DNA of 62,601 nt, the filler included. It is 5 parts of 5 records of this genome, joined end to end, with 100 filler letters (N's around TTAATTAATTAA, not from the genome) between each part and the next. Parts side by side here need not be neighbours in the genome. Positions count along the whole stretch, not along the records: positions 16,433 to 31,033 come from DRR378314_1441; 4 more parts are not named here. One strand, 5' to 3'. The position numbers were made by a program, and so were the translations under genes. Positions 5,968 to 41,566 of the stretch are shown here, piece after piece. The notes below the pieces were generated by a model. It was not told the DNA's origin. It saw only the letters and a program-made list of their open reading frames with translations, and ran no database searches. The stretch's first letter is position 1. Every line of letters starts with the position of its first letter.

Positions 5968-6029
5968 AGCCACTAGATGCCGTTTAACCAAGCGGCAAAC
6001 AACACTAACTCCTTATAAGGAGAATAATA

Positions 6030-7496
6030 ATGTCAACAACAACGAACGACGAAAACAAACGACCCTCGTTTTGGAGCGCCATCATTGGCATCGGTTTCTT
6101 ATGCTTCATGATGTTTGCGCAGATCTTTTTACTGGGTGAAGACTGGGTCACCCATATTTCGCTGATCTTTGCCATTGTGGTCTGCGCCATCATCGCGCTG
6201 TATTCCGGCTTCAGCTGGCAGGATGTTCAGAAAGGCATTCTATATGGCTGCGAAATCGCCATGCTGCCGATGCTGATCTTAATGATGGTCGGCGTATTAG
6301 TCGCCAGTTGGATTGCCTCCGGCACGATTCCCTCGCTGATCTATTATGGCCTTCAACTGATCAACCCCTCCTATTTCCTGGTCACGGCTGTCATCGTGTG
6401 TGCCGTTGCATCACTGGTCACCGGCAGCTCATGGACCACCGCCGCCACCTTCGGCGTAGCCTTTATCGGCATCGGCAGCGGTCTGGATATTTCTCCGGCG
6501 ATGACCGCGGGCGCAGTTATTTCCGGTGCTATCTTCGGTGACAAGATTTCACCGGTATCAGACTCCACCAACCTCGCTGCCGGGGTTGCCGAGGCCAACC
6601 TGTTCGACCACATCCGTTCGATGTTCTACACCACCGGCCCGGCACTCATCATTACCATTATTCTGTTCTTCTTTATCGGCATGCAGTTTGACGGCGAAGG
6701 AGCTGATATTTCCCGCACCGCTGAACTGCTAGCGGGCATTAGCGATAATTTCTCAGTGGGATTGCTCGCCTTCCTGCCCCCATTAGTGGTGGTTGTTTTG
6801 GCCTATCGGCGCATCAATGCCCTGGCAGTCATGGTCATTGGCAGCCTACTAGGGGCGGGACTTGCCGTCGCTACTCAAGGTGTCGGGCTGGGCAGCATGA
6901 TGAATTACATGAACTACGGCTATGTCTCGGAAACCGGCGTTGAAGCCGTCGATAGCCTACTTAGCCGTGGCGGCCTGCAAGGCATGATGTGGACGATCTC
7001 GCTGGGCTTTATCGGGCTTAGCCTGGGTGGCCTGCTGGAGAAGACCCGTATGCTCGAAGTGCTCTTGGAAAAGATGGGCAAACTGGTCAGTAATTCACGC
7101 GGACTCATCGTTACCCATGTGCTCTCGTCATTAGCCACCAACCTGTTCTCGGCCAGCCAGTATATTGCCATTATTATTCCGGGCCGCATGTTCGTACCCG
7201 CCTACCGCAAACTCAAAATTCTGCCATCGGTATGTTCGCGCACCTGTGAGGACTCGGCCACGGTTACTTCGCCGCTAGTTCCTTGGGGGCTAGGCGGTGC
7301 TTACTACATGGGCGTGCTGGATGTCTCTGCGTGGGACTACATGGGTTGGACCTTCCTCGCCATTATCACTCCCGTGATTGCCATTGTGTACGGCCTGTTC
7401 AATATCTGCATTTGGCGTGAAGGCGAGCGTAACGACGTCAACACCTATAACCAGCCATACACCGAAAGTCTGCCGCAAGCCGAGCTAGCGAAGTAG
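6030..7496 (+). CDS. NhaC-family membrane transporter (probable amino-acid/organic solute carrier)
   Basis: Multi-TM protein with GSSWTT, AGAVISGAIFGDKISPVSDSTNLA, RGG and SRTCEDSATV..PLVPW motifs. AAGGAG RBS. Confidence 0.88.
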   Translation: MSTTTNDENKRPSFWSAIIGIGFLCFMMFAQIFLLGEDWVTHISLIFAIVVCAIIALYSGFSWQDVQKGILYGCEIAMLPMLILMMVGVLVASWIASGTIPSLIYYGLQLINPSYFLVTAVIVCAVASLVTGSSWTTAATFGVAFIGIGSGLDISPAMTAGAVISGAIFGDKISPVSDSTNLAAGVAEANLFDHIRSMFYTTGPALIITIILFFFIGMQFDGEGADISRTAELLAGISDNFSVGLLAFLPPLVVVVLAYRRINALAVMVIGSLLGAGLAVATQGVGLGSMMNYMNYGYVSETGVEAVDSLLSRGGLQGMMWTISLGFIGLSLGGLLEKTRMLEVLLEKMGKLVSNSRGLIVTHVLSSLATNLFSASQYIAIIIPGRMFVPAYRKLKILPSVCSRTCEDSATVTSPLVPWGLGGAYYMGVLDVSAWDYMGWTFLAIITPVIAIVYGLFNICIWREGERNDVNTYNQPYTESLPQAELAK

Positions 7497-9483: not shown

Positions 9484-9583
9484 NNNNNNNNNNNNNNNNN
9501 NNNNNNNNNNNNNNNNNNNNNNNNNNNTTAATTAATTAANNNNNNNNNNNNNNNNNNNNNNNNNNNNNNNNNNNNNNNNNNNN
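9484..9583. other. Artificial contig linker
   Basis: N44-TTAATTAATTAA-N44, with stops in all six frames. Confidence 0.99.
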
Positions 9584-16332: not shown

Positions 16333-16432
16333 NNNNNNNNNNNNNNNNNNNNNNNNNNNNNNNNNNNNNNNNNNNNTTAATTAATTAANNNNNNNNNNNN
16401 NNNNNNNNNNNNNNNNNNNNNNNNNNNNNNNN
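16333..16432. other. Artificial contig linker
   Basis: N44-TTAATTAATTAA-N44. Confidence 0.99.
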
Positions 16433-16462
16433 TCGCAGGTTCGAGTCCTGCTAGCCCGACCA
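16433..16462 (+). tRNA. 3' fragment of a tRNA, probably tRNA-Pro (truncated by contig start)
   Basis: T-arm GCAGG-TTCGAGT-CCTGC, acceptor strand TAGCCCG, discriminator A and CCA. The G72/A73 end is typical of tRNA-Pro. Anticodon not visible. Confidence 0.75.
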
Positions 16463-16467
16463 TAACA

Positions 16468-16498
16468 AAACGCCCGAGCGGTCACCGCTCGGGCGTTT
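16468..16498 (+). terminator. Terminator after the tRNA
   Basis: AAACGCCCGAGCGG-tca-CCGCTCGGGCGTTT perfect hairpin. Confidence 0.8.
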
Positions 16499-16632
16499 GT
16501 GTATCCGCCGCCTGCTTTGTCGTTGGTTTTCCAAGGTAAATTCTCGGCCTCAAGTGACAAGGCGATTGTGGCACGACAGAATTTGCGTCAGCATCCTTCG
16601 GGACAGCGACGCCATCAGGGGGAACGGCAGAT

Positions 16633-17712
16633 ATGACCGGTGTTTTGCCCAGCCAGACGATCGAAACCATGCTCGCGCGAGCGGAAATCAAACTCGACGC
16701 GCCGCTGATCGACGGCCAGATCCAGCCCGCCAGCCTTGACCTGCGCCTTGGCACCGTCGCCTATCGCGTCCGCGCCTCCTTCCTCGCCGGTCAGGGCCGC
16801 ACCGTGTCCGAGCGGCTGGACGAATTCGAGATGCATCGCATCGACCTCAGCGACGGCGCGGTGCTGGAAAAGGGCTGCGTCTACGTGGTGCCGCTGATGG
16901 AATCGCTCGATCTGCCCGCCAACATCACCGCCGTTGCCAATGCCAAAAGCTCCACCGGGCGGCTTGATCTGCTGACCCGCACCATCACCGATGGCGGCGA
17001 GGAATTCGACCGCATCCGCGCCGGCTATACCGGTCCGCTTTACGCCGAGATCTGTCCGCGGTCCTTCTCGGTGCTGGCACGCCCCGGCATGCGCCTCAAC
17101 CAGATCCGCTTTCGTGACGGGCAAGCGGTGCTGGATGACGCCACCCTCGCCGCGCTGCATGCCGATACCCCGCTGGTCGATGGCGAGGCGGTGATCGAGG
17201 ACGGCTTGGGCTTTTCCGTCGATCTGCGCCTGCCGGGCACCGATCTGGTGGGCTATCGCGCCAAGCCGCACACCGGCGTGATCGATCTGGAGCGGATTGG
17301 CGCCTATGACCCCGGCGATTACTGGGAGGAGGTGCGCAGCGACAAGGGCCGCATCATCCTCGATCCCGGTGCGTTTTATATCCTCGTCAGCCGCGAAGCG
17401 GTGCATATCCCGCCCGAATACGCCGCCGAAATGGCGCCCTACCTCGCCATGGTCGGCGAATTCCGGGTGCATTACGCGGGGTTCTTCGATCCCGGCTTTG
17501 GCCATGCCGAGGCAGGTGGAGCAGGCTCGCGCGGGGTACTGGAGGTGCGCTGTCACGAGGCGCCCTTTGTGCTGGAACACGGGCAGGTGGTGGGCCGTCT
17601 GGTCTATGAACGGATGGCCTCCCTGCCCGATCAGCTTTATGGTGCCGGCATTGCCTCCAACTATCAGGGCCAGGGGCTGAAGTTGTCGAAACATTTCCGC
17701 AGCCCCACCTGA
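16633..17712 (+). CDS. dcd: 2'-deoxycytidine 5'-triphosphate deaminase (alphaproteobacterial long form)
   Basis: QIQPASLDLRLG, ANAKSSTGRLD, GEFRVHYAGFFDPGFG and SNYQGQGLKLSKHF motifs. Confidence 0.93.
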   Translation: MTGVLPSQTIETMLARAEIKLDAPLIDGQIQPASLDLRLGTVAYRVRASFLAGQGRTVSERLDEFEMHRIDLSDGAVLEKGCVYVVPLMESLDLPANITAVANAKSSTGRLDLLTRTITDGGEEFDRIRAGYTGPLYAEICPRSFSVLARPGMRLNQIRFRDGQAVLDDATLAALHADTPLVDGEAVIEDGLGFSVDLRLPGTDLVGYRAKPHTGVIDLERIGAYDPGDYWEEVRSDKGRIILDPGAFYILVSREAVHIPPEYAAEMAPYLAMVGEFRVHYAGFFDPGFGHAEAGGAGSRGVLEVRCHEAPFVLEHGQVVGRLVYERMASLPDQLYGAGIASNYQGQGLKLSKHFRSPT

Positions 17713-17718
17713 GCCGCC

Positions 17719-18246
17719 TCAGCGCGGGTAGCTGACGCTTTCTAGGTCCGCCGTGACATCCGCCTGCGCGGTGCGTTCCAGCACTGTCGACAGGGTCAGA
17801 TAGGTGCTCGTGCCGCGCACCCCCTCGATATCATAGACCTTTGATAACAGCCCCTCCAGCGCCTGCGGGCTGGCAACGCGCACCTTCATGATCAGGCACG
17901 TGTCACCGGTGGTGGAATGGATCTCCTCCACCTCGGGGAATTGCTCCAGCGCCATGATCTCGCGCGTTTTGCCCCAGCCGATGGTATCCACATGGATGAA
18001 GGCGAGAATCGGCTTGCCGACCTGCGTCCCGTCGATCTGTGCGACCGTGGCCTTGATCGCGCCCGAGGCCCGCAGCCGCTTGACCCGCTCATGCACGGCT
18101 GGTGCCGACAGGCCCACCTGCTCGCTGATCGCCGCATAGGACTGCGTGGCATCCCGGCTCAGCGCGCCTAATATTCTTCGGTCCAACGCGTCGATCCCCC
18201 TTGTGGATCGCGCCGAGGTCCGAATGCTCTCTGTTTTTTCCACCAT
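17719..18246 (-). CDS. Lrp/AsnC family transcriptional regulator
   Basis: DALDRRIL..L..DA..SYAAISEQVGLSAPAVHERVKRL HTH and a C-terminal AsnC domain. Confidence 0.92.
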   Translation of the reverse strand: MVEKTESIRTSARSTRGIDALDRRILGALSRDATQSYAAISEQVGLSAPAVHERVKRLRASGAIKATVAQIDGTQVGKPILAFIHVDTIGWGKTREIMALEQFPEVEEIHSTTGDTCLIMKVRVASPQALEGLLSKVYDIEGVRGTSTYLTLSTVLERTAQADVTADLESVSYPR

Positions 18247-18329
18247 CAGATCTTTAACACCTTCACAGAATGATTTTCGCCAATTAAGCCAAACTGCCGA
18301 ATGAAATTCAATCTGGATTAAGCCTGACC

Positions 18330-19526
18330 ATGCCATCTTCTGCCCCGCCGCTCTGGATCTCCATCGCCACGCTTATGTGCGCCATTGCCATCGTGGGCAC
18401 CAATGCGCTGTTGCTGTCCCCCTTGGTGCAGACCGTGGGCGCGGATCTCTCCGCCAGCCCAACGCAGGTGCTTTGGGCCTCCAGCGGTTACGGGTTGGGG
18501 GTGGCGGCAGCGGCGCTGCTGATTGCCCCGATCGGAGATCGCATCGGCAGCGGTCGGCTGTTGCGGATGGCGCTAGCAATTCTGACCGTTGGCTTTGTTG
18601 CCAGTGCGCTCGCCCCCGGCCTGATCGCGCTGATTGCCGCGCAGGTGCTCTGCGGCATCGCCGGTGGGGCGGCCCTGCCCTCGATCTACACAATGGCGGC
18701 GGTGATCGCCCCAAAGGGGCGCGAGGCGCGGGTGGTCGGCGCGGTCATCACCGGCTGGACCCTCTCGCTGGTGCTGGGGGTCAGCCTCGCCGCATGGAGC
18801 GCCGAGTTCCTCGGCTGGCGCATGGTCTACGGGGCCCTTGCGGCGCTTTGCGCTCTGGTCTGGGGGCTGAGCGCACCGCTGGCGCGGCTTGATGCGCCGG
18901 GGGGTGCGACCAGCTCGCCGCTCAGCGCGCTCCGGGTGCCCGGCATGGGGCGCGGTATCCTCGCCTCGGTTGGCCTCATGCTCAGCTTCTATGTGACCTA
19001 TTCCTATACCGGCGCCCATGCCACCATCGATCTTGGCCTCAGCACCGGTCAGGCCGGGCTCTTGCCGCTGATCTACGGGCTGGGGTTTGGCGGCGCGGTA
19101 CTGCTGGACCCGCTCCTTGACCGCATCGGCATGGCGCGCGCCACCACACCGGTGTTTCTCGCACTCACCCTGACCTATGTGGCGATGGGCGTGCTGGGGG
19201 CCAGCTATCCGCTGTTTCTGGCGCTGGCAGTGCTCTGGGGGATCTTCCAGCATTTCGGCCTGAACCTGCTGGTGGCCCGGCTCACGGCGCTGGACCCGCG
19301 CCAGCGGGGGGCGATCATGGGGATCTACTCGACGACGACCTATCTCAGCGTCTTTGCCGCGCCCTTTGTGGGCGGCATCGGCTTTGCGACACTGGGAATT
19401 CTGGGCTGCGTTCTGATTTCAGCGACCCTGACCATGATCGCCGCAGTCGAGGCACTGAGCCTGCGGCGCACCACCGCGTTCAGCTCTTCTCACGCGCCGC
19501 ACGACGTGCCCGACGCGCCTGTCTGA
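18330..19526 (+). CDS. MFS transporter (probable exporter)
   Basis: About 12 hydrophobic segments and an APIGDRIGSGRLL loop motif. Divergent from the Lrp regulator. Confidence 0.88.
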   Translation: MPSSAPPLWISIATLMCAIAIVGTNALLLSPLVQTVGADLSASPTQVLWASSGYGLGVAAAALLIAPIGDRIGSGRLLRMALAILTVGFVASALAPGLIALIAAQVLCGIAGGAALPSIYTMAAVIAPKGREARVVGAVITGWTLSLVLGVSLAAWSAEFLGWRMVYGALAALCALVWGLSAPLARLDAPGGATSSPLSALRVPGMGRGILASVGLMLSFYVTYSYTGAHATIDLGLSTGQAGLLPLIYGLGFGGAVLLDPLLDRIGMARATTPVFLALTLTYVAMGVLGASYPLFLALAVLWGIFQHFGLNLLVARLTALDPRQRGAIMGIYSTTTYLSVFAAPFVGGIGFATLGILGCVLISATLTMIAAVEALSLRRTTAFSSSHAPHDVPDAPV

Positions 19527-19734
19527 CCTCGCGGATACGGGCGCGCTCGGCCTCTTCCTCGGGCGTGCGCTGCGGCTTTTGCGGCGCGCCTTGCGTTTCG
19601 TCCTGGCCTCGGCGTGCCGCCTTCTTGCCGCCGGCCCGTTTGCCAACTGCATTGATGCCGGCGTTGACGCCCGCGTTCACCGCGCGCCCGATCAGGCGGC
19701 GCAGGACCATATTGGCGATCCGGTCAAATCCCAT
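19480..19734 (-). CDS. Small basic hypothetical protein
   Basis: MGFDRIANMVLRRLIGRAVNAGVNAGINAV..., GGAGG RBS. 3' end overlaps the MFS gene convergently. Confidence 0.65.
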   Translation of the reverse strand: MGFDRIANMVLRRLIGRAVNAGVNAGINAVGKRAGGKKAARRGQDETQGAPQKPQRTPEEEAERARIREVRQARRARRAAREKS

Positions 19735-19846
19735 GAGGACCTCCCTTGGGGTCTGAGTGTAGGTTTGCTGCGTTCGCCATACATATAGGTGCGGAGTACG
19801 GCGATTTCTTGGCATGTGCAAAGAGGAGCGAGCTCCAAGCCCCGGG

Positions 19847-20530
19847 TCAGTCCTCGAACAGCTCCGGCTGCTCCTCGTCCTCTCGCTCATCCTCGCTGTC
19901 GCCCTGACCGATCGGGAAGGCGCTCGGCGGTGGACGGTTCTCCAAGAGCCCGGCGGCGCGCAGCTCCTTCAGCCCCGGCAAATCGCGCGCGCTCTCCAGG
20001 CCAAAGTGATCGAGGAAGGTCGGTGTCACCACAAAGGTCACCGGCCGCCCTGGCGTCATCTTGCGCCGCCCCAGACGGATCCACTCCATCTCCAGAAGCT
20101 GGTCGATGGTGCCGCGCGACACCGACACGCCGCGGATTTCCTCTATCTCGGCCCGCGTCACCGGCTGATGATAGGCGATGATCGCCAGGGTCTCGATCGC
20201 CGCGCGCGACAGTTTGCGGCTCTCCACGGTTTCCTTCTGCATCAGATAGCCGAGATCCGGCGCCGTGCGCATCGCCCAGGCGTCGCCCACCTGCACCACC
20301 CGCACACCGCGTCCTTCGTAGCGCTTGCGCAGGTGTTCCAGCGCCTCTCCCGGGTTGCAGCCATGCGGCATGCGCGACACCAGATCGCGCACCGTCACCG
20401 GCTCGGCACTGGCAAAGAGCACCGCCTCCACCATGCGCTCCTGCTCCGCCATCGGCGGCGCGTCGAACAGGCTGTCGCTGTCCTGCTTCGCGGACGGCTC
20501 ATTGGGGCTGTGGGTCTGGTCGTCCATCAT
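19847..20530 (-). CDS. scpB: SMC-Scp complex subunit ScpB
   Basis: VEAVLFAS.EP, LSRAAIETLAIIAYHQPVTRAEIEEIRGV and FLDHFGL...DLP motifs. Confidence 0.96.
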   Translation of the reverse strand: MMDDQTHSPNEPSAKQDSDSLFDAPPMAEQERMVEAVLFASAEPVTVRDLVSRMPHGCNPGEALEHLRKRYEGRGVRVVQVGDAWAMRTAPDLGYLMQKETVESRKLSRAAIETLAIIAYHQPVTRAEIEEIRGVSVSRGTIDQLLEMEWIRLGRRKMTPGRPVTFVVTPTFLDHFGLESARDLPGLKELRAAGLLENRPPPSAFPIGQGDSEDEREDEEQPELFED

Positions 20531-21327
20531 ATATCCTCTGGCCGGTTGCGCAGCTGGATCGGGGCGAAGCTCTCGCTCTGGCGGATCTCCATCTTGCCCT
20601 CCTTCACCAGCTGCAGCGAGGCGGCGAATGTGGCGGCGGTGGCCGAGCGGCGCTTGACCGGATCACTGTGCCAGCCGTCTGGCAGATAGCTCAGCATATC
20701 GGTCCAGCTGCCGGTAAACCCCAGCAGGCTGCGCATACGTTCCAGCGCCTCTTCCATGGTGAAAACACTCTCGCGGTCCATCACGAAGGGGCGGAATTCA
20801 TCCTTGGTGCGGATGCGCGCGTAGCCTTGCATCAGGTCCAGAAGGTTCGCGGTATAGGTCACCGTCTTGATGCGCTGCACGTCCTCGGCCTGCCCGCGGG
20901 CAAAGAAGTCCCGTCCCAGCTGGTCGCGCCCCATCAGCCGCGCAGCGGCATCGCGCATCGCCTGCAGGCGCTCCAGCTGGAACGCCAGATGCGCCGCCAG
21001 TTCTTCGCCCGAGGGGCCTTCTTCTTCCGGGTCGGGGGGCAGCAGCAGGCGCGATTTCAGGAACGCCAGCCAGGCCGCCATCACCAGATAATCGGCGGCC
21101 AGCTCGATGCGCAGCTCCTTGGCCTTTTCCACGAAGGTCAGGTACTGGCGCGCGAGTTCGTAGACAGAGATCTGGCGCAGATCGACCTTCTGGGTGCGCG
21201 ACAGCGTCAGCAGCAGGTCCAGCGGCCCCTCAAAGCCCTGCACATCGACGATCAGCGCCTCGGCTTCGAGGCGTTCCTCGACCGAAATCTGCGTCTCATC
21301 CGGGAATAACGAGTCTTCGTCAGCCAT
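20527..21327 (-). CDS. scpA: Segregation and condensation protein A
   Basis: FEGPLDLLLTL, AADYLVMAAWLAFLKSRLLLP and Q.E.FAPI motifs. Confidence 0.96.
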   Translation of the reverse strand: MADEDSLFPDETQISVEERLEAEALIVDVQGFEGPLDLLLTLSRTQKVDLRQISVYELARQYLTFVEKAKELRIELAADYLVMAAWLAFLKSRLLLPPDPEEEGPSGEELAAHLAFQLERLQAMRDAAARLMGRDQLGRDFFARGQAEDVQRIKTVTYTANLLDLMQGYARIRTKDEFRPFVMDRESVFTMEEALERMRSLLGFTGSWTDMLSYLPDGWHSDPVKRRSATAATFAASLQLVKEGKMEIRQSESFAPIQLRNRPEDI

Positions 21328-22360
21328 ATACCTGTCCGCCCATGAGGGCAGATAGTTCCGCTTCAGCCGCATCCATGTCAAGCGCAGCAGGTTCCTGACG
21401 GCAGGCAAGTGCCGCCTCGGCGCGCCGATGGGCGGCATCCGTCATGCAGCCGGCAGCCTCAACAACGGCAGCGCGAGCCGCCAGCGAAGAGTTGCAGAAC
21501 AGCGCCACATCGCAGCCCGCATCGAGGGATGCCCTCGCAATTGCCCCAGCCGCCATATCTGGATCGTCTGGCTGCAAGCCGGACAGCTCAGGTGCCCATA
21601 AGGCCTTCATCGAAATATCATCGGTCATCACCAGACCGTCATAGCCCAGCTCCTGCCGGACCACCTGCATCATCACCGGCGACAGGGTCGCAGGACGCGG
21701 ATCAAAAGCGTCGTAGACCAGATGCGCGGTCATCGCCATCGGCAGATCCTTCAGCGGCGTGAAGGCGGCAAAATCCTCGGCCCGCAGCACCTCCGCCGGG
21801 GCAGTCACATGTGGCAGGTCGTGGTGACTGTCCATGCTGGAGCGGCCATGACCGGGTATGTGCTTCATCACCGGCACGACGCCGCCATCCAGATGCCCCG
21901 CCGCACAGGCGCGGGCAATCGCGGCCACGCTGGCGGCATCCGCCCCGTAACAGCGGTTGCGCAGAAAGGGATGCGTGTCAGCGCTGGCGATATCCGCCAG
22001 CGGCGCGCAATTGCTGTCGATGCCAAGTGCATGCAGCTCCGCCGCGATCAGCCGTGCCCGCAGATACATCGCCCGCACCGGGTCGGTGGCCGCCTGCACA
22101 TGGTCCAGCGCCGGACGCCACTCGCGCGCAAGCGGCGCGCGCAGCCGCTGCACCCGACCGCCTTCCTGATCGATGGTGATCAGACACTCATGCCCCGCCG
22201 CCTCACGGAAATCATCACAAAGCGCGCGGATCTGGTCGGCGCTGTCGATATTGCGGGCAAAGAGGATAAAGCCAAAAGGCGCAGCCTCGCGGAACAGCGC
22301 CTTTTCATCCGCCGTCAGGCGATGGCCTTCGGCGTCCAGAATGGTGGCCCCGAACCGCAT
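21320..22360 (-). CDS. nagZ: Beta-N-acetylhexosaminidase (GH3)
   Basis: GFILFARN, IDQEGGRVQRL, KHIPGHG..DSH and MTDDISM motifs. Confidence 0.93.
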   Translation of the reverse strand: MRFGATILDAEGHRLTADEKALFREAAPFGFILFARNIDSADQIRALCDDFREAAGHECLITIDQEGGRVQRLRAPLAREWRPALDHVQAATDPVRAMYLRARLIAAELHALGIDSNCAPLADIASADTHPFLRNRCYGADAASVAAIARACAAGHLDGGVVPVMKHIPGHGRSSMDSHHDLPHVTAPAEVLRAEDFAAFTPLKDLPMAMTAHLVYDAFDPRPATLSPVMMQVVRQELGYDGLVMTDDISMKALWAPELSGLQPDDPDMAAGAIARASLDAGCDVALFCNSSLAARAAVVEAAGCMTDAAHRRAEAALACRQEPAALDMDAAEAELSALMGGQVYG

Positions 22361-22364
22361 CGGC

Positions 22365-23681
22365 TCAGCGCATTGTCACAGGAATGCAATCGGCATTGCC
22401 CGCCACCAGGGCCGAGCAGAAGCGCCGCGCGTCCGACAAGTCCTCAAACCCGTGCGCGCGCAGGCGATAGAAGATCCGCCCACCGCTTTCGGCACGCTGT
22501 ACCACGCGCGCCTTGTCGTCAAAGAATTCACCAAAGTTGGCGCTGATCCGGGTCCACTCGCTGCGCGCCACCTCGGCACTTTCAAACGCGCCGAGCTGTG
22601 CCAGCCGCGTGCCAACAGCCAGGCTCTTGGGGTCAATATCAACGGTCCGCTGCTCTGGCTGTGCGGCGCTCTCGCTTGCGGCGGGCGCCGGGGCAAATCG
22701 CGCCGGACGAACCTGCGGCCGCGGTGTTTCGCGTACACCTGGGGCATTGCGGATCGCTGCAGGCACACGGGCGATCGCAACATCTGCGGTATCCAGCGGA
22801 TCCGGTTGCACGATGGAAGCGGAGGTTTCGCGCAGGTCTTCCAACGGCACCGCCCCGTCCGTCAGGGACGCCACCAGTGCGTCAATATCATTGTTGCGCT
22901 GCTCCAGCGGCGAAACATCTTCGATCTCTGCGCTTTGCAGTTCATCCTCGGCGACAGGCGCTCGCGCGTCTTCTGCGGCATATTCCGCCTCGAGCGCGGC
23001 CTCTTCCTCTGCCGCCTGGGTCAGTGCCGGGATCGGCTGGTCATCCTCAGTGAGGGCAATGGTCTCAGGCGCCAGCCGCAGGGTATCTGCCGGATCTTCG
23101 GCAATCCCGTTTGCGGCAACGGAATTGACTGCCAACCCCTGATTGTCCGCCGTCTCACCGCCCGGCTCCGCGGGCGCCACGCGCATCGGACCCGCAACGG
23201 CGCTGACCACCGGCACGCCGGAGACGTCGCGCATAATCAGTTTGTAGCCCCAGACGGAGATGCTCACCACAAGCGCGATGGAGGCCGCAGCGCCGAGAAA
23301 CGCCGCCATGCGCCCCAGCTCACCGCGAGAGGGTTGCGGGGCAAAGAGCTCTTCCTCATCACCACCAAACCCATCGCCATAGTCACCAACGTAGTCATAA
23401 CCCGCTTCCGGATAGGCGTCGGAGTTGGCGTAACTTCCGGCACCAGAGAACGTGCCGACATTGACGCTTGGTGACTGGTTCAGGCCAAAGGTCGGATAAG
23501 GTGATTCCGCCACGGGTTCCGCAGCTGCGATGGCGGCAGCCGCCATTTGCTCCTGCGCATGTTCCTGTGCCGGAGCGCGTGAGTATTGATGAGAGGAAAA
23601 CGGATCGAAGGCCGAGCCTCCGGTGTCACCATCGCCATTTGAAGAGGGAGCGCCCGCGCCCACCTGTGCAAAATATGCCAT
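22365..23681 (-). CDS. SPOR domain cell-division protein
   Basis: Single TM, acidic linker and a C-terminal SPOR domain (AQLGAF.S...A...W, FYRLRA.GF...A..FC..L). Conserved position between argS and nagZ. Confidence 0.88.
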   Translation of the reverse strand: MAYFAQVGAGAPSSNGDGDTGGSAFDPFSSHQYSRAPAQEHAQEQMAAAAIAAAEPVAESPYPTFGLNQSPSVNVGTFSGAGSYANSDAYPEAGYDYVGDYGDGFGGDEEELFAPQPSRGELGRMAAFLGAAASIALVVSISVWGYKLIMRDVSGVPVVSAVAGPMRVAPAEPGGETADNQGLAVNSVAANGIAEDPADTLRLAPETIALTEDDQPIPALTQAAEEEAALEAEYAAEDARAPVAEDELQSAEIEDVSPLEQRNNDIDALVASLTDGAVPLEDLRETSASIVQPDPLDTADVAIARVPAAIRNAPGVRETPRPQVRPARFAPAPAASESAAQPEQRTVDIDPKSLAVGTRLAQLGAFESAEVARSEWTRISANFGEFFDDKARVVQRAESGGRIFYRLRAHGFEDLSDARRFCSALVAGNADCIPVTMR

Positions 23682-23790
23682 ATCCGCCTCACTGCCCTAA
23701 GTCGCATTCGCCCCGCCACAATAGAAGGGCGGACGCATGCGCGTGGGTCTCTTGATCTGCCTCAGGCCAGCGGTTCGGGTGACTTTGGCG

Positions 23791-25533
23791 TCACATCTCC
23801 TGCGCTGGTTTGACTCCAAGAATACCAAGACCAGCAGAAATGACAATGGAAACAGAGCGGGCAAGTGCCAAATTAGCATGTGTTGCCGTTTGGCTGCTCT
23901 CATTAACAAATCGTAAACTCATTTCAGATTTGCCGAGGTGGTATAGCCCATGCAGGTCCGACGCCAGATCATAGAGGAAAAAGGCGATCCGGTGCGGCTC
24001 ATTGGTGCGTGCAGCAATCTCTACCTGACGCGGCCATTCGGCGATCTTCCGCGCAACCGACAGCTGTGCATCATGAGCAAGCGTACTCAAGTCGGCTGAT
24101 GCAAGCGTTGCGTCGTCGGTGGCGATGCCCGCCTCCGCTGCCTTGCGCAGGGTCGAATGGATGCGCGCGTTTGCATATTGTACGTAGAACACCGGATTGT
24201 CCTTGGACTGCTCCAGCGCCTTGTCGAGATCAAAGTCGAACCCCTGATCGTTCTTGCGCGTCAACAGCATGAAACGGGTCACATCCGCGCCCACTGCCTC
24301 GACCACGTCGCGCAGGGTGACAAAGGTCCCGGCCCGCTTGGACATCTTGAATTCCTGGCCGTCCTTGAACAGCTTCACCAGCTGGCAGAGCTTGATGTCC
24401 AGCGGAACCTGACCATCGGACAGGGCGGATACCGCTGCCTTCATCCGCTTGACATAGCCACCGTGGTCCGCACCAAAGATATCGATCAGCATGTCAAAGC
24501 CACGGCTGACCTTGTCGTAGTGATAGGCGATATCCGGCGCGAAATAGGTCCAGGCGCCATCGGATTTCTTCACCGGGCGATCAACGTCATCGCCATGTTC
24601 GGTGGATTTGAACAAGGTCTGCTCGCGGGGCTCCCAATCATCGGGTTTCTTGCCCTTCGGCGGCTCCAGCACGCCTTCGTAGATCAGCCCCTTCGCATCA
24701 AGGCTCTCCAGCGCGGTTTCGATCCGCCCAGTGCCATAGAGCGATTTTTCCGAATAGAAGACATCCATCTCAATACCCAGAAGCGCCAGATCGCCCCGGA
24801 TCAGATCCATCATCATCTCGGTGGCGGCGTTGCGGATTTCCTCCAGCCAGATTTCCTCGGGCTGGTCGATGAATTGCGCGCCGTATTTGTCCTTCAGCGC
24901 GGCCCCGACATCCTTCAGGTATTCACCGGGATAGGTGCCGTCAGGAAATTCCACCGTCTGACCATGCGCCTCGAGGTAACGCAGGTAGGCCGAGCGCGCC
25001 AGAACATCGACCTGCGCGCCGCCGTCGTTGATGTAATATTCACGGGTGACCTCATAGCCGGCGTAGTCCAGCAGGCTCGCCAGCGCGTCGCCGAACACCG
25101 CTCCCCGTGTATGGCCCACATGCAGCGGCCCGGTTGGGTTGGCAGAGACATACTCCACGTTGACCTTCTTGCCCTGCCCCAGATCGGAGCGGCCATAGGC
25201 CTCGCCACCCTTCAGCACCTTGCCTAGAACCTCCTGCCAGACCGATGCCTCGAGGCGCAGGTTCAAGAACCCCGGCCCGGCCACCTCGGCAGAGGCCACG
25301 CGCGTGTCCGCCCCCAGCTTTGCGGCCAGCGCCTCGGCAATGTCGCGGGGCTTCATCTTGGCAGGCTTTGCCAGAACCATCGCCGCATTGGTTGCCATAT
25401 CGCCATGCGCCGCATCTCGAGGAGGTTCCACCGCGACATTGGCAAAATCGAGCCCCTCAGGCAGGGTCCCTTCGGCCGTCATGGCCGCGAGGCTATCAAT
25501 CACAAGCGTACGGATATCGGTAAAGAGGTTCAT
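23791..25533 (-). CDS. argS: Arginine--tRNA ligase
   Basis: [44 protein letters not shown] and NPVFYVQYA motifs. Confidence 0.97.
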
Positions 25534-25751
25534 GTCTGGCGTCCTTTGGTTCAGCCTCAGCGGATACCGAGGGGCGCGCTCAGGGTCAACAGTCGAAGCA
25601 GGCGCGCCCAGTGGCCACGCGCACACTCTGCGGCGCGACATCGCCCGATCTGCCCTCCTTAAAGGGGGGCACCACCAGCCCAATCCTGCTCCAAGTGAAC
25701 CACCGCGCGCGACGCAGAAGGGATTTAGACGCCGCGATACCAGCCCGCCCT

Positions 25752-25796
25752 TTCAGCTTTTTGCTAAATATCCCGGAGCGCGAGGCAGCGCCTCGC
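25752..25796 (+). repeat. Intergenic repeat, copy 1 (related to 48005-48060)
   Basis: TTCAGCTTTTTGCTAAATATCCCGG...GCGAGGCAGCGCCTCGC resembles the reverse complement of 48005-48060. Confidence 0.55.
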
Positions 25797-25820
25797 TTCC
25801 CCACACTGCAGCACGTGCCG

Positions 25821-26972
25821 TCAGTCTCGGTGGTCCCCCAGCGCCAACTGATCATAGAGCTGCAGCGCAAAGCGGTCGGTCATCCCGGCGATATAGTCCG
25901 ACACGATCCGCGCCCGCTCCACCTCTGTGGCAGCAGCACGGATGTCATCATGCCAGCGCTCCGGCATCGCCATCGTATTCTCCAGATAGTAGGTGAACAA
26001 CGCCTTCACCACATGTGCGACCCGCTCCCGCACCACCATCACTGATGGGGCACGATACATGCGGGTGAACAGGAACGCGCGCAGCTCTTTCAGCTGACGC
26101 CATATCTCATCCGAGAATGTCACGACCGAGTGGTCAAGCGCCCGGATCTCCTGCACCGACTGGGCGCCTGAGGCGGCCAGTTTCCGGCGCGCGGTGTCGA
26201 TCACATCACTGACCATCACGCCGAACACCCGGCGCAGCGCCTCGTGCCGACGGCGGCTCGCATCCAGCCCGGGGTATGTCTCGTCGACCTGCGCATAGGC
26301 GGGGCCGATCAGCGACAGGCCGCAAATATCGTCATCACTGAACAATCCCGCCCGCAGCCCGTCATGCAGGTCGTGATTGTTATAGGCCACATCATCCGCC
26401 AGCGCCGCCACCTGCGCCTCGGCGCTGGCGTAGGTGTGAAGCTCCAGATCAATCGCCTGATTGCAGGCTGCAAGCGCCCAGGGCAGATCCCCCACAACAG
26501 GCCCATTGTGTTTGGCGATCGCTTCCAGCGTTTCCCAGGTCAGGTTCAACCCGTCGAATTCGGCATAGTGCCTTTCCAGCGCCATCACGATCCGCAACGC
26601 CTGCGCATTGTGGTCAAAGCCGCCATAGGGCGCCATCATCTCGTGCAGCGCGTCTTCGCCGGTATGGCCAAAGGGCGTGTGACCGAGATCATGGGCCAGC
26701 GCCACCGCCTCTGTCAGTTCCTGATTGAGCCCCAGTGCACCGGAAATCGTCCGCCCCACCTGCGCCACCTCGATGGTATGTGTCAGCCGGGTGCGATAGT
26801 TGTCGCCTTCGTGTTCGACAAAGACCTGTGTCTTGTGCTTCAGCCGCCGAAAGGCGCTGGCATGGATGATCCGGTCACGGTCGCGCTGGAACGGCGAGCG
26901 AAAGCTGCTTTCTTCTTCGTCGACCTGACGCCCGCGTGAAAGCTCGGGCATGGTGGCATAGGGCGCGTACAT
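25821..26972 (-). CDS. dgt: Deoxyguanosinetriphosphate triphosphohydrolase
   Basis: FQRDRDRIIH..AFRRLKHKTQV, RTRLTHTIEV, LAHDLGHTPFGHTGE and DYIAGMTDRFA motifs. Confidence 0.95.
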   Translation of the reverse strand: MYAPYATMPELSRGRQVDEEESSFRSPFQRDRDRIIHASAFRRLKHKTQVFVEHEGDNYRTRLTHTIEVAQVGRTISGALGLNQELTEAVALAHDLGHTPFGHTGEDALHEMMAPYGGFDHNAQALRIVMALERHYAEFDGLNLTWETLEAIAKHNGPVVGDLPWALAACNQAIDLELHTYASAEAQVAALADDVAYNNHDLHDGLRAGLFSDDDICGLSLIGPAYAQVDETYPGLDASRRRHEALRRVFGVMVSDVIDTARRKLAASGAQSVQEIRALDHSVVTFSDEIWRQLKELRAFLFTRMYRAPSVMVVRERVAHVVKALFTYYLENTMAMPERWHDDIRAAATEVERARIVSDYIAGMTDRFALQLYDQLALGDHRD

Positions 26973-27059
26973 GGTTTATTCCTCGGGAAATCTTGTCGCC
27001 TCGCGCGCACCTTTCTATATTTGACTCAACGCTGCAACACGCCATCGGAGAAAACCAGT

Positions 27060-27383
27060 ATGCAACTGCCCCCAAAAGTGACGGATCGTGCCTTTGACCG
27101 GCTGGCCGAGATCGGGGCCGCCGACCAGGGCCAGGCCCTGCGCATCGCCGTAGAAGGCGGCGGCTGTTCCGGGTTCCAGTATGAAATCGCTCTGGACGCG
27201 CCCAAAGCAGAGGATCTGATCCTCGAAGGCAAAGGACAGAAAGTCGTTGTTGACGAGATTTCCCTGCCCTTTCTGGAGAATGCGGTGATCGACTTTACCG
27301 AAGAGCTGATCGGCGCGCGCTTCACCATCGAGAACCCCAATGCCACCTCCAGCTGTGGCTGCGGCACCTCTTTCTCCATGTGA
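27060..27383 (+). CDS. erpA: HesB/IscA-family Fe-S insertion protein
   Basis: LRIAVEGGGCSGFQY and NPNATSSCGCGTSFS motifs. GGAG RBS. Confidence 0.93.
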   Translation: MQLPPKVTDRAFDRLAEIGAADQGQALRIAVEGGGCSGFQYEIALDAPKAEDLILEGKGQKVVVDEISLPFLENAVIDFTEELIGARFTIENPNATSSCGCGTSFSM

Positions 27384-27389
27384 CACACT

Positions 27390-28373
27390 TCAACGTCCGG
27401 CGCGCCAGGCGCCGCGACGTTTTTCACAATGTGCCTGCGTTGCCCCTCGCGCCTGTGCTCGTCCCCGACGCCCTGCCACCTCTGCCACCAGCGTCACAGC
27501 CTGCGCAGGCGCGGCGCGCCGGATTTGTGACTGGTCCCACACCAGAAACACGCCAGAAGCCGCAACCACGGCCATGCCCAAATAGGTTGAAATCGCCGGC
27601 AGCTCACCAAAGGCCAGCACCCCGATCAATGTCATCCAGACGAATTGCAGATTGAGCAACGGTGTGACGGTGTAGGCTGGCAACTGACGCAGCGCCAACA
27701 CCAGCAGCCAGCGTGCCCCAAACAGAACCACGGCATAAGTACAGATCCAGCCCCAGTCGGCTGCCTCCATGGGCTGCCAGACGAATGGCAAACAGCACAG
27801 CATCACCACCCCCAAGGTCAGATTTGGGTAGAAGACCTGCGCCAGAATATTGCTGTCGTACCGGCTGATATAGCGCGCCATAATGATCGACAGCGTTCCG
27901 AAACTCACGCCAGCCAGCGCCAAGGCTGAACCGGTGGCACCGCCCACCTGCACGGTGGGCCGCATCACCAGAAGACCGACGCCCCCCAGACACAGCGCTA
28001 GCCAGACCGCAGGTCGGATCCGCTCCTTTAGGATCAGCCCCGACAGCAGCGCCGCCAAGAGCGGCATCAATGCGATGAAGACAAACACCTCGGCAAGCGC
28101 CAGATACCGGAAGGCAAAATAGAACGAGGTGCACGCCAGAACCGTCGCAACCGACCGCAGCATCATCGCCTTCACGCAGCGCGTGCTCAACCCGTCCGGG
28201 TGCCCCTGTACCCGGTTCACGCCAAGACAGAACGCCGCCACCAATAGCCCCGAGACCGCAAACAGCTGCGCCGGCGCGAACTCCGACGCCATCATTTTGG
28301 TGATCCCGTCCGCCGTGGCGATGAGGCCGGTATACACCAGCACTGCAACCACCCCTGCGGCAACAGGGCTCAT
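27390..28373 (-). CDS. DMT/EamA family transporter (third gene of the putative RiPP-like cassette)
   Basis: About 10 TM segments with DGITK, LAEVF..PLLAALLS..ILKERI and GVLAFGELP motifs. ATGA overlap with the upstream gene's stop. Confidence 0.9.
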   Translation of the reverse strand: MSPVAAGVVAVLVYTGLIATADGITKMMASEFAPAQLFAVSGLLVAAFCLGVNRVQGHPDGLSTRCVKAMMLRSVATVLACTSFYFAFRYLALAEVFVFIALMPLLAALLSGLILKERIRPAVWLALCLGGVGLLVMRPTVQVGGATGSALALAGVSFGTLSIIMARYISRYDSNILAQVFYPNLTLGVVMLCCLPFVWQPMEAADWGWICTYAVVLFGARWLLVLALRQLPAYTVTPLLNLQFVWMTLIGVLAFGELPAISTYLGMAVVAASGVFLVWDQSQIRRAAPAQAVTLVAEVAGRRGRAQARGATQAHCEKRRGAWRAGR

Positions 28374-29434
28374 GCGCCGCCAACTTGGCCGAATCGCGAG
28401 AATGTCTCGAAGAAGGGCTCAAAAACAGAGGTGCTGCTTTCGGCGCGGCACAGGATATCGACATCCTCAGAACTCAGGCTCTGCATCAATGGACGGCGCA
28501 TCCTGGCCCAGGTTCCGGGGGCATGATCCAACAATGTGTAAAGAGCCATAGACACTCCCCGCAACGCACCGGGGCGTGTTTGCCCCTCGATAACGACTGA
28601 CCCTTTGCAGTCTGCATCAGAAAACCCGCCGCGTCCAACCAGAAGTTGAAACCAATTGCACATCAGATAGGGATGGTAGTCGTCGTTTCCGACGCGTCCC
28701 TGCGCCGGCCGCAAGGTGAAGCTGCCAACTTGCTGGCTCAACCAGCTGCACCAGTCCCGCGGCGGCACCTCATCGCAGAAGGTCAGCGCAATACAGATCT
28801 CCGCCAGTAGGTCCGCGTCCTGATCCAGAAAGGCAACCAGCCCGGCGAACAGCAGGCTGCGGCGCTCTTCGCTCTCCAGACGGATCGGCGCCCGGCCATA
28901 TTCTGTCAGATAGAAAACCACATGCGTCAGCTCGTAGGCCGCCTTGCGGTTTGGCACCCCAAAACAGGCGCTTTGCCGCATGAAGCCCCGCAGTCTGTCG
29001 TCCAGCCCCTCGACACCGCGCAGCTCCACCCCGCGCCGTGCCAATAGGCGCCGTGCCTCGCCCCGCTGCAGGTCAGACAACTCACCACGAGCGATGTCCT
29101 GGTCGACAATCCAGCTCGCCATCGCCTCAGCCCGCTCACCCGGCAGGCCCAGATCCTCCAGATCGAGGCAGATCGATAGAATAAAACGATAATACTGACG
29201 GAAGAAATTGAGATGCCGCAGGCTACCTTCATAAAACGGAAGCAGCGGTTCCAAAGCGGCACATGAGGTTTTACAACCACTGGTTTCTAAAACACTCAAT
29301 AGCTCCGCATTTTCCTTCAACCACAACACATCCAGCCGATCTTTTCGAAACGAACCGAACGCCTCCAATAGACCCGAGATGCCGGAACCAACTCTCTGAG
29401 TACGGGCATTTGAAAATGATAAAACCTGACCCAT
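28370..29434 (-). CDS. Uncharacterised 354-aa protein, putative peptide-modifying enzyme
   Basis: Start set at ATG 29434 after a GAGGTG RBS. Motif-like segments WLKENAELL, YYRFILSICLDLEDLG, PNRKAAYELTHVVFYLTEYG, DADLLAEICIAL and DDYHPYL. The function is inferred only from gene context. Confidence 0.8.
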   Translation of the reverse strand: MGQVLSFSNARTQRVGSGISGLLEAFGSFRKDRLDVLWLKENAELLSVLETSGCKTSCAALEPLLPFYEGSLRHLNFFRQYYRFILSICLDLEDLGLPGERAEAMASWIVDQDIARGELSDLQRGEARRLLARRGVELRGVEGLDDRLRGFMRQSACFGVPNRKAAYELTHVVFYLTEYGRAPIRLESEERRSLLFAGLVAFLDQDADLLAEICIALTFCDEVPPRDWCSWLSQQVGSFTLRPAQGRVGNDDYHPYLMCNWFQLLVGRGGFSDADCKGSVVIEGQTRPGALRGVSMALYTLLDHAPGTWARMRRPLMQSLSSEDVDILCRAESSTSVFEPFFETFSRFGQVGGA

Positions 29435-29472
29435 CTGCGCCCACCTCTCTGGAATTGGTAGTTTGTGGTTTT

Positions 29473-29498
29473 CGTGATCCGGCACAGGCCGAATCACG
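29473..29498 (-). promoter_or_regulatory. mRNA stem-loop between the peptide gene and the putative enzyme gene
   Basis: Minus strand CGTGATTCGGC-ctgt-GCCGGATCACG: 11-bp stem, fully paired (one G-U) only on the coding strand, with no U tract. Confidence 0.6.
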
Positions 29499-29512
29499 CT
29501 ATCTCTCAGAGG

Positions 29513-29734
29513 TTACTTCATCTGTTCGAGACAGGTGGACGACACCATATGCGTCGCATCGCCGCCATGCATATCCGTGGCATCGGCAGAAATACATGTG
29601 GAACTGTAAAGAGATACATGCCCACCTTCATGTGTACCATCAAGGCAGGTCGAGCTGACGAGCCCGACATTCTCACCCGTAAAGGCACCGGTTTCGAACA
29701 TAGTTGCTTCAACCGTTTTCTTAAGTGCAGTCAT
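29513..29734 (-). CDS. 73-aa peptide with three SSTC repeats, putative multi-core precursor peptide
   Basis: AGGAG RBS before ATG 29734. Sequence MTALKKTVEATMFETGAFT-GENVGLVSSTCL-DGTHE-GGHVSLYSSTCI-SADATDMHG-GDATHMVSSTCL-EQMK. Confidence 0.85.
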   Translation of the reverse strand: MTALKKTVEATMFETGAFTGENVGLVSSTCLDGTHEGGHVSLYSSTCISADATDMHGGDATHMVSSTCLEQMK

Positions 29735-30095
29735 GACACTTCTCCTGTTTAGAAATTCAATATGTAAAACGTGCCAGTGCAAAAAAATATATCAAGAAAA
29801 TAATATCGGAAGACGTGAATTAAAACGTCAACCTTACATTAATATTGATTAACAATAAATTGAATCCCGGCCTCATTTCGAGTTGCGCACATACAGTCCA
29901 CAGAATTACCCACACCGCTATTTCTGCAAAACCAGAGATACATCACCCAGGGTTGCACAGTGAAAATTGCGTTAACCTTTTCCAGGCAGCGATTCTTGCG
30001 TACCAAAGGGCGCGGCGGAGACGCCTCCGGTTCGCTTGCAGGACGATCAGAATTCAGCGATAGAACAGGCCTCGGAGAGCAACACGGAGACCACC

Positions 30096-30902
30096 ATGAA
30101 GATCGCCAGTTTCAACATCAACGGCATCAAAGCCCGTGTGAATGCGCTCGCCGATTGGCTGGACGAGGCGCAACCCGATGTTGCTGTCCTGCAGGAAATC
30201 AAATCTGTCGACGACGCCTTCCCGCGCGAGATGTTCGAAGAGCGAGGGTACAACCTGGAGACCCACGGCCAAAAGAGCTTCAATGGCGTGGCGATCCTGT
30301 CGAAACTCCCCCTCGAGGATGTACGTCGCGGCCTGCCCGGCGATGACAGCGACGAACAAGCCCGCTGGATCGAGGCCACGGTGGTCGGTAAACAGGCGAT
30401 CCGGATCTGCGGTCTCTACCTGCCCAATGGCAACCCGGTCGAGCTGGAAGAGGACGGAACCCCGGTGGCCGGCGGCAAATACGCCTACAAGCTTGCCTGG
30501 ATGGAGCGACTGAAGGCGCGGGCCGAAGAGCTCATGGCAGAAGATATGCCCGCTCTCATGGCCGGTGACTACAATATCATCCCTCAAGCCGAAGACGCCA
30601 AACGTCCAGAGGCCTGGCAGGAAGATGCGTTACATCGGCCCGAAAGCCGGGCCGCCTTTCAGCGTATCGTAAACCTTGGGTTCACCGAAGCCTTTCGCGC
30701 CCGGACGCGGGGCGCGGGTCACTATACCTTCTGGGATTATCAGGCGGGCGCCTGGAACCGCGACGACGGCATTCGCATCGATCACTTCCTGCTGACGCCA
30801 CAGGCTGCGGACCTGCTGAGGGACTGTCAGATCGACAAGGACATTCGCGGCCGTGAAAAGCCGTCCGACCATGTTCCGATCTGGGTCGAGCTGGACATCT
30901 GA
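30096..30902 (+). CDS. xth: Exodeoxyribonuclease III
   Basis: MKIASFNINGIKAR, LQEIK, NGVAILSK, YLPNGNP, GDYNI, RIDHFL and PSDHVP motifs. Confidence 0.96.
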   Translation: MKIASFNINGIKARVNALADWLDEAQPDVAVLQEIKSVDDAFPREMFEERGYNLETHGQKSFNGVAILSKLPLEDVRRGLPGDDSDEQARWIEATVVGKQAIRICGLYLPNGNPVELEEDGTPVAGGKYAYKLAWMERLKARAEELMAEDMPALMAGDYNIIPQAEDAKRPEAWQEDALHRPESRAAFQRIVNLGFTEAFRARTRGAGHYTFWDYQAGAWNRDDGIRIDHFLLTPQAADLLRDCQIDKDIRGREKPSDHVPIWVELDI

Positions 30903-31033
30903 GCCCTTAGACCATCCGCTCGCCAATGGGCAGGCAACGGGGCCATGCACTCAGAACGGGGCATGCCCTCCCGCCCGGCATCAGCGGCATTCATGATGCC
31001 ACCACGCCCGTTGGGCCGAGCGCCGCGCGCCCC

Positions 31034-31133
31034 NNNNNNNNNNNNNNNNNNNNNNNNNNNNNNNNNNNNNNNNNNNNTTAATTAATTAANNNNNNNNNNN
31101 NNNNNNNNNNNNNNNNNNNNNNNNNNNNNNNNN
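31034..31133. other. Artificial contig linker
   Basis: N44-TTAATTAATTAA-N44. Confidence 0.99.
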
Positions 31134-41466: not shown

Positions 41467-41566
41467 NNNNNNNNNNNNNNNNNNNNNNNNNNNNNNNNNN
41501 NNNNNNNNNNTTAATTAATTAANNNNNNNNNNNNNNNNNNNNNNNNNNNNNNNNNNNNNNNNNNNN
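41467..41566. other. Artificial contig linker
   Basis: N44-TTAATTAATTAA-N44. Confidence 0.99.

Follow-up and report, generated by a model that had tools for sequence, protein, structure and literature searches.

A three-unit SSTC repeat peptide encoded upstream of a DUF6902 protein, probable multi-core precursor of an undescribed RiPP-like pathway in the Roseobacter group

The window (the whole stretch of 62,601 nucleotides that was analysed) contains on its minus strand an operon in the order: a gene for a 73-aa peptide, a gene for a 354-aa DUF6902 protein and a gene for an EamA/DMT exporter. This cassette is flanked by xth and erpA and also has a dGTPase gene as a neighbour; erpA is located on the strand opposite to the cassette and is part of the conserved backbone. 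The N stretches at 9484-9583, 16333-16432, 31034-31133 and 41467-41566 each read 44 N, TTAATTAATTAA and 44 N, and we take TTAATTAATTAA to be a linker of the six-frame-stop type used to join contigs into a pseudomolecule. Since such linkers lie between the parts, the window is made up of contigs joined in a row; the one carrying the peptide gene comprises positions 16433-31033. The features of the cassette are the following:

27390..28373, minus strand: gene for an EamA/DMT-family transporter of 327 aa, candidate exporter (Pfam EamA, E 4.8e-17)
28370..29434, minus strand: gene for the DUF6902 protein, 354 aa from ATG 29434, candidate peptide-modifying enzyme (Pfam, alignment A1, AlphaFold2)
29473..29498, minus strand: 11-bp stem-loop between the peptide and enzyme genes, CGUGAUUCGGC / GCCGGAUCACG, with loop CUGU and no T-run after it
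29513..29734, minus strand: precursor-like peptide gene, 73 aa and a stop codon (homologue alignment and codon comparison)
29531..29563, minus strand: unit 3, GDATHMVSSTC, residues 58-68, followed by the variable five-residue tail LEQMK (sequence and alignment)
29594..29626, minus strand: unit 2, GGHVSLYSSTC, residues 37-47 (sequence and clade alignment)
29645..29677, minus strand: unit 1, GENVGLVSSTC, residues 20-30 (sequence and clade alignment)
29678..29734, minus strand: leader, residues 1-19, with the N-terminus M-x-A-L-K-K (M1, A3, L4, K5 and K6 invariant in the clade alignment)
29742..29746, minus strand: ribosome-binding site AGGAG, 7 nt before ATG 29734 (read directly in the sequence)
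29802..29831, minus strand: promoter-like site TTGACG-18-GATATT, upstream of the peptide gene and within an AT-rich stretch (sigma-70-like match)

Translation of the peptide gene gives MTALKKTVEATMFETGAFTGENVGLVSSTCLDGTHEGGHVSLYSSTCISADATDMHGGDATHMVSSTCLEQMK. Reading of the minus strand confirmed the original prediction that three units G-x4-[LM]-[VY]-S-S-T-C lie in register, and that C30, C47 and C68 are the only cysteines, each closing an SSTC and each having a Gly exactly 10 residues before it (G20, G37 and G58). The listed ORF starts at TTG 29782 and codes for 89 aa, 16 more than the gene starting at ATG 29734. The latter is the better start, as had been proposed, since it is preceded by AGGAG, homologues begin with M-x-A-L-K-K, and in L032, one of the two nearest genomes, the homologous start Met is preceded by a stop codon at a distance of ten codons. 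In pairwise comparisons the units share 5-7 of 11 amino acids and 13-20 of 33 nucleotides; the codons thus differ, as predicted, between repeats conserved as protein, and this indicated that the units are old copies held alike at the protein level. When the peptide was shuffled in 200,000 rounds, any 4-mer occurred at least three times in 52 of them, the registered Gly not being required in this count.

The DUF6902 gene begins 78 bases downstream of the peptide gene. Its start was assigned to ATG 29434 and not to GTG 29497 (375-aa ORF) on the basis of alignment A1, which comprises 38 DUF6902 sequences, that of the window and those of 37 relatives; the GTG falls in the hairpin and is not conserved. 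The ATG of the EamA gene overlaps the stop codon of the DUF6902 gene (ATGA), so that both are translationally coupled in the window. The promoter-like site is the sole sigma-70-like match in positions 27000-30200, in which shuffled sequences gave a mean of 1.4 such matches, and by itself it is weak evidence. Regarding the intergenic hairpin, a stem of at least 6 bp within 60 nt past the precursor stop was found in 27 of 48 loci and in 28 of 96 control pieces taken from enzyme genes, a modest enrichment of about two-fold. Folding z-scores past the precursor stop were not convincing (median -0.36; z < -2 in 10/48 loci), and Rfam gave 0 matches over the whole window.

The 73-aa peptide showed no match in the Pfam and NCBIfam model sets. 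A search of 5.8 billion proteins yielded 11 clusters including that of the window, with 61-100% identity and lengths of 68-76 aa, the ten other clusters being 61-85% identical to the window peptide. Two of the homologues (from Tritonibacter and Phaeobacter; 66-67% identity) are named "DUF6749 family protein" by NCBI, and neither these two nor the window peptide matched Pfam even at E 10. In the alignment of the 11 clusters (hereafter, the SSTC clade) the three SSTC, the Gly at -10 and the M-x-A-L-K-K N-terminus are all invariant, and in one homologue (P0007) the protein stops at the Cys of unit 3. Codon differences inside the units, counted against L031 and L032 as the two nearest genomes, were mostly synonymous (6:1 and 10:4 synonymous to non-synonymous), and those outside the units were not (7:11 and 15:17). 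The peptide gene is real and its units are under purifying selection, which bears out the proposed selection on the repeated motif. That the ORF is a chance one, or the stretch a non-coding repeat, would agree with its shortness and with its lack of Pfam and NCBIfam matches, but it is practically negligible as an explanation of ten clusters sharing an invariant motif, of the mostly synonymous substitutions in the units, of the ribosome-binding site, and of the identical position of the peptide in 89 of 91 related loci (see below).

Two other traits put forward in the original prediction were retained only in part. The GG pairs at the start of units 2 and 3 are not kept in homologues, although the single Gly at -10 is invariant; a double-glycine cleavage site before these units was considered and rejected because homologues do not conserve the GG. 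Spacer His residues are conserved in part even within the clade, as counted on the alignment: H35 is present in 10/11 clusters and H56 in 9/11, but H39 in 5/11 and H62 in 6/11. The number of units is three in 11 of 11 clusters; a search for longer peptides of SSTC type yielded none, though this is weak evidence. The three units are not identical to one another, each being maintained across species, and so this clade may make three distinct short peptides, L[VF]SSTC, LYSSTC and MVSSTC, and not copies of one. Parts of the spacers are also individually conserved. The fixed count of three and the non-identity of the units would also be compatible with one product in which the three Cys are all used.

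Relatives' loci were drawn around genome G001. Peptide and DUF6902 genes are almost always neighbours: of the 91 loci from 91 other genomes, 89 have a repeat peptide gene on the same strand immediately upstream of DUF6902, namely 30/30 in L001-L030, 18/20 in L031-L050, and 41/41 in L051 and L071-L110 (L096 having only two units). DUF6902 is the only conserved partner of the repeat peptide. By tblastn, 66 of 90 loci had an EamA homologue immediately downstream of DUF6902 and on the same strand, a count that is a lower bound limited by flank length, the other 24 being without EamA within their flanks. In nearly all loci the cassette is found at the same chromosomal site, with xth on one side and erpA/dGTPase on the other; it is therefore vertically inherited, often lost and not mobile.

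Forty-eight of the peptides were tabulated. Their leaders are mostly of about 19-28 residues and begin with M-x-A-[LQ]-x-K, and they are followed by 2-20 copies of a unit formed by G-[DE]-x-[VT]-x-[ML]-F (third position commonly [AG]) and four further residues, with which the SSTC units of the window are in register. As the Gly at -10 served as the anchor of the unit search, its constancy across the wider family follows from the method; short units lacking this Gly occur too (VQMFTSGL). The last residue of the final unit is also the C-terminus in 30 of the 48 peptides. Within a genome the final four residues are uniform, whereas they change from genus to genus (SSGS, TSGS, TSWS, VSWS, TSGL, TCGA, TCGL, SSCS, TSCA, TTSL, TTSM, TTSC, STSM, PSCA, MCVS, TNWC, IAGL and others), and the spacers vary. 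An architecture of this kind, with a conserved leader, 2-20 units, uniform ends and variable spacers, would be typical of multi-core precursors. The original prediction had proposed that a variable number of repeats with an invariant SSTC-like motif in homologues would support a multi-core precursor. Variation in number was found in the wider family but not in the SSTC clade, and invariance of the motif was found in that clade but not in the wider family, whose units end in SSGS, TSWS, TSGL and the like. No residue of the final four is strictly conserved (L081 has N at -2, and IAGL in L048 is devoid of Ser, Thr and Cys), and consequently the sequences point to no single obvious chemistry.

In the precursors of L013, L020, L029 and L007 shortened nested units without G-[DE]-x-[VT] were observed (…MFTSGLVQMFTSGL…, …MFSSCSVELFSSCS…). 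This suggests, as far as sequences can tell, a minimal unit of [EQ]-[ML]-[FY] and four residues.

The composition of the units also bears on the alternative that had been offered in the original prediction, an unmodified peptide in which three Cys and the spacer His chelate a metal. Within the clade the three Cys are invariant and His35 is nearly so, and the neighbouring erpA is a gene for Fe-S assembly, though encoded on the opposite strand and belonging to the conserved backbone. The commonest final four residues lack Cys in 35 of the 48 tabulated peptides, Cys being confined to the SSTC clade and a few others, and spacer His is likewise clade-specific and no feature of the family at large. 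Since these ligand residues are not conserved family-wide, and since simple chelation would leave the strict pairing with DUF6902 unexplained, metal binding does not fit the family and we regard it as very unlikely, although the product of the SSTC clade by itself may have this property.

DUF6902 is present in 104 of 401 genomes of the bacterial family to which the window belongs (103 over the Pfam cut-off), these 401 representing 400 genera, nearly all with one genome per genus. When the class was sampled, it exceeded the cut-off in 4/4 genomes of this family and in 0/397 genomes from 207 other families, among which a single match of 25.8 bits was obtained; a profile search of 1.84 billion representatives retrieved only 229 proteins at E <= 0.001. 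In the enzyme tree the window falls in a well-supported, divergent clade with L031 and L032. The final four residues of the units track the clades of this tree and also switch inside close clades, from SSGS to SSCS, TTSL or TCGA, a pattern to be expected of an enzyme that reads the conserved stretch of the unit and tolerates its last four residues. The only loci devoid of the peptide are L040 (genome G374) and L050 (genome G048), both of which keep a DUF6902 frame between xth and erpA. The L040 enzyme has PDRRAARDLVR in place of PNKKAAYELTH at invariant or near-invariant sites and a branch of 0.47 versus 0.12-0.30 for its neighbours, and its locus has no EamA gene; that of L050 reaches only 104.7 bits and misses the conserved stretch W-L-K-E-N-A-E. 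Judging from these changes, both look like orphan enzymes in decay.

The loci of two distant members of the family were also sought. In L056, a Thalassospiraceae MAG, a 67-aa non-repeat ORF (2801-3004, plus strand) precedes the distant DUF6902 member P0096, and its stop overlaps the start of the enzyme gene. From this single example, DUF6902 proteins outside the Roseobacter group may act on single-core peptides. For the second distant member, P0070, no locus was found among genome or metagenome contigs.

The 354-aa protein of the window matches PF21843 (DUF6902) with E 1.2e-123 and 412.9 bits (cut-off 27) over model positions 1-350 of 351. In alignment A1 its conserved polar residues include K40, E41, E118, D121, R124, E126, Y167, E168, H171, D208, E212, D251 and H254, most of them invariant and the others at least 90% conserved; the alignment contains one nearly invariant Cys and two conserved His, and no set of invariant Cys/His zinc ligands. 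An AlphaFold2 model generated with the 38-sequence alignment was nearly all-helical (pLDDT 91.6, pTM 0.90). Foldseek searches of the PDB with this model gave nothing at E <= 0.001, and the A1 profile gave 0 matches to PDB sequences at E <= 10. With an exhaustive structure aligner, residues about 10-270 of the model matched (alpha/alpha)6 toroids with Z 9-12 and rmsd 3.6-4.9 Å. All of the best matches were toroids of this class, among them class II terpene cyclases, beta subunits of protein prenyltransferases (Z 10-11.6), complement thioester domains, glycoside hydrolases, sugar 2-epimerases and the LanC domain of CuvL (Z 9.3). According to the model, the predicted fold of DUF6902 is thus an (alpha/alpha)6 toroid; this is claimed as a fold class and not as a relationship, because helical proteins can reach such Z values without kinship. 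In a complex prediction of DUF6902 with the 73-aa peptide, which was run without alignments, the score was 0.02 against a mark of 0.34, a result that counts neither for nor against an interaction.

On the modelled structure, LanC cyclases and protein prenyltransferase beta subunits would share the fold class of DUF6902. Prenylated proteins carry a C-terminal CaaX box, and many peptides of the family similarly end with their four variable residues. Unlike those enzymes, DUF6902 has no Pfam match to them and lacks their invariant Cys/His zinc ligands; in the case of LanC, a dehydratase gene is also absent and most of the four-residue ends are devoid of Cys. A LanC-like lanthipeptide cyclase was considered as a candidate function and rejected, there being no Pfam match and no two invariant Cys, and the likeness standing at the level of the superfold.

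The same protein also matches PF21836 (DUF6895) with E 2.9e-19 and 70 bits (cut-off 23.8), through residues 93-246 and spanning model positions 74-231 of 289 only. Comparison of the profiles and of two DUF6895 proteins revealed a common signature Y-x-[LI]-[ST]-H-x-x-F-[YF]-x-x-[DE]-[YF]-G, and the D-L-x-x-E of DUF6902 was also present in one of these two proteins. On this evidence DUF6902 appears to be a sequence relative of DUF6895 that constitutes a separate Pfam family. In L069 the gene for one of the two compared proteins, a true DUF6895 gene (5890-6888), directly follows two tandem paralogous genes for peptides of about 65 aa (5251-5451 and 5593-5850, plus strand) with the sequence …LGPDLG[SG]S[TA]G[AS]LVG[RP]W[YF]V…, and the cluster also contains a C39/C70-like peptidase, an O-methyltransferase and an MFS transporter. 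It looks like a separate uncharacterised RiPP-like cluster around DUF6895, as judged from its gene content, and its context indicates that the wider superfamily too adjoins precursor-like peptides.

The one functional statement found in print is the title of a reference of 2026, which names a DUF6895 family epimerase modifying a lasso peptide (in PMC13352647 and PMC13453073; Shi et al., ACS Catal. 16:1757). As far as that title allows a comparison, DUF6902 resembles the lasso-peptide epimerase in its homology, in the shared signature, and in that the DUF6895 gene of L069 also lies beside small precursor-like peptides. It differs from it in three respects: DUF6902 is over the cut-off in one bacterial family only among the genomes searched, with a distant member in the Thalassospiraceae MAG, which comes from another collection; genes for a lasso cyclase, a leader peptidase or an RRE are absent from its neighbourhood; and its candidate substrate would be a tandem-repeat peptide and not a lasso precursor. 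From this kinship we tentatively suggest L-to-D epimerisation as the chemistry of DUF6902, a guess that we hold as possible although rather unlikely. A D-residue could explain how a short peptide survives general peptidases with no dedicated protease in the cassette.

Taken together, we consider it likely that the 73-aa ORF codes for a multi-core precursor of an undescribed RiPP-like pathway in which DUF6902 is the modifying enzyme and the EamA/DMT protein the exporter. The multi-core idea of the original prediction is strongly supported by the in-register homologues of 2-20 units upstream of DUF6902, and leader and core regions, as expected for a RiPP, are found both in the window (a leader and three units) and in the relatives (2-20 units). 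The precursor would consist of a leader of about 19 residues and three units, each composed of a recognition stretch, G-[DE]-x-[VT]-x-[ML]-[FYV], that appears conserved family-wide, and a four-residue "cargo", SSTC in this case, that is uniform in a genome and varies with the genus. DUF6902 would bind the recognition stretch and modify each unit; peptidases encoded elsewhere, or DUF6902 itself, are assumed to release the short products, and the translationally coupled EamA/DMT transporter would export them. The action of DUF6902 on the repeat peptide, and the excision and export of the units, are both inferred.

The original prediction had assigned the peptide to the kind of precursors of cyanobactins or dikaritins, and this membership did not hold, the operon containing in addition to the peptide only DUF6902 and EamA, and the peptide having neither a signal peptide nor dibasic sites flanking its units. 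Both families would serve as analogies for the multi-core layout only. Patellamide-type cyanobactin precursors similarly have a leader and several cores, each beside a recognition sequence, the cores being hypervariable between strains. Unlike them, the cassette lacks PatA/PatG proteases, and a domain scan of the operon detected no subtilisin-like protease, macrocyclase, YcaO heterocyclase, prenyltransferase or dehydratase; besides, the host is an alphaproteobacterium and the cargo comprises only four residues. Dikaritins are fungal, secretory products whose pathways involve signal peptides, Kex2 dibasic sites and DUF3328/UstYa oxidases. Their precursors (ustiloxin, asperipin) resemble the repeat peptide in the many tandem short cores, but the operon is bacterial, the N-terminus of the 73-aa peptide is not hydrophobic, no KR sites lie beside its units, and no DUF3328 domain is present.

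The nature of the exporter and the lack of a protease in the conserved cassette bring in two other explanations. The DMT/EamA family is known for carrying amino acids and small metabolites rather than peptides, and the peptide could accordingly be a scaffold for a small molecule, as in PQQ, mycofactocin and pearlins, with DUF6902 building on one or two residues per unit, EamA exporting the product and the rest being recycled. A cargo of just four small residues would suit such a role, and many copies per precursor would increase the yield. The cargo is, however, strongly dependent on the genus, which is unexpected for a cofactor-like small molecule, and radical-SAM, oxidase, ligase and peptidase genes are absent beside the peptide/DUF6902 pair; we therefore regard a scaffold role as improbable. 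The second explanation takes the absence of a protease at face value: the peptide would remain uncut, either as a multiply modified polypeptide or as a multivalent ligand or regulator of several DUF6902 molecules. The fixed unit number of the SSTC clade and its individually conserved units and spacer parts agree with an uncut peptide, to which we nevertheless give little probability, since variation from 2 to 20 units among related genera with freely evolving spacers is hard to reconcile with one folded or stoichiometric entity, and since a small-molecule exporter is coupled to the pair in most loci.

A multi-core precursor being the preferred reading, the cassette looks like an undescribed modified-short-peptide pathway common to many marine Roseobacter-group bacteria, which rank with the most abundant and most thoroughly studied heterotrophs of the sea and whose chemical exchange with algae receives intense attention. 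No description of the cassette was found in the literature on DUF6902, DUF6749, the unit motifs and Roseobacter RiPPs, supplementary files lying outside that search. The elements that are new here are the clade with three SSTC units, the divergence of the enzymes at the two loci devoid of a peptide, the fold class, the signature common to DUF6902 and DUF6895, and the context of L069. The cassette occurs in about a quarter of the genera sampled, with a short motif particular to each genus and repeated up to 20 times, and if the products are exported they would constitute a family of peptide signals or antagonists that is new and easy to mine. If the reading is true, it would provide a first function for DUF6902 and for the peptides that NCBI names DUF6749, and an (alpha/alpha)6-toroid enzyme would join the small set of folds that modify ribosomal peptides. 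A more far-reaching proposal, which we put forward as speculation and consider doubtful, is that DUF6902 founds a new RiPP class, in which a lone toroid enzyme turns each unit of a tandem-repeat precursor into a short modified peptide that is exported by a DMT protein and acts, across the family but with species specificity, as a signal or competition factor of the marine Roseobacter group; such products would possibly contain a D-residue and would have a genus-specific four-residue identity. As the system consists of two or three chromosomal genes, it is directly testable.

Finally, the contig at 31134-41466, next to xth in the window, differs from the others in having a GC content of 52-57% versus 61-65% and few long ORFs under translation table 11. 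In Pfam it matched nothing but Mannosyl_trans3 (E 2.3e-07) and a VMA21-like domain (E 3.6e-07), which we take to be families familiar from eukaryotes. This contig may be foreign or contaminant DNA, and it lies outside the neighbourhood of the cassette.
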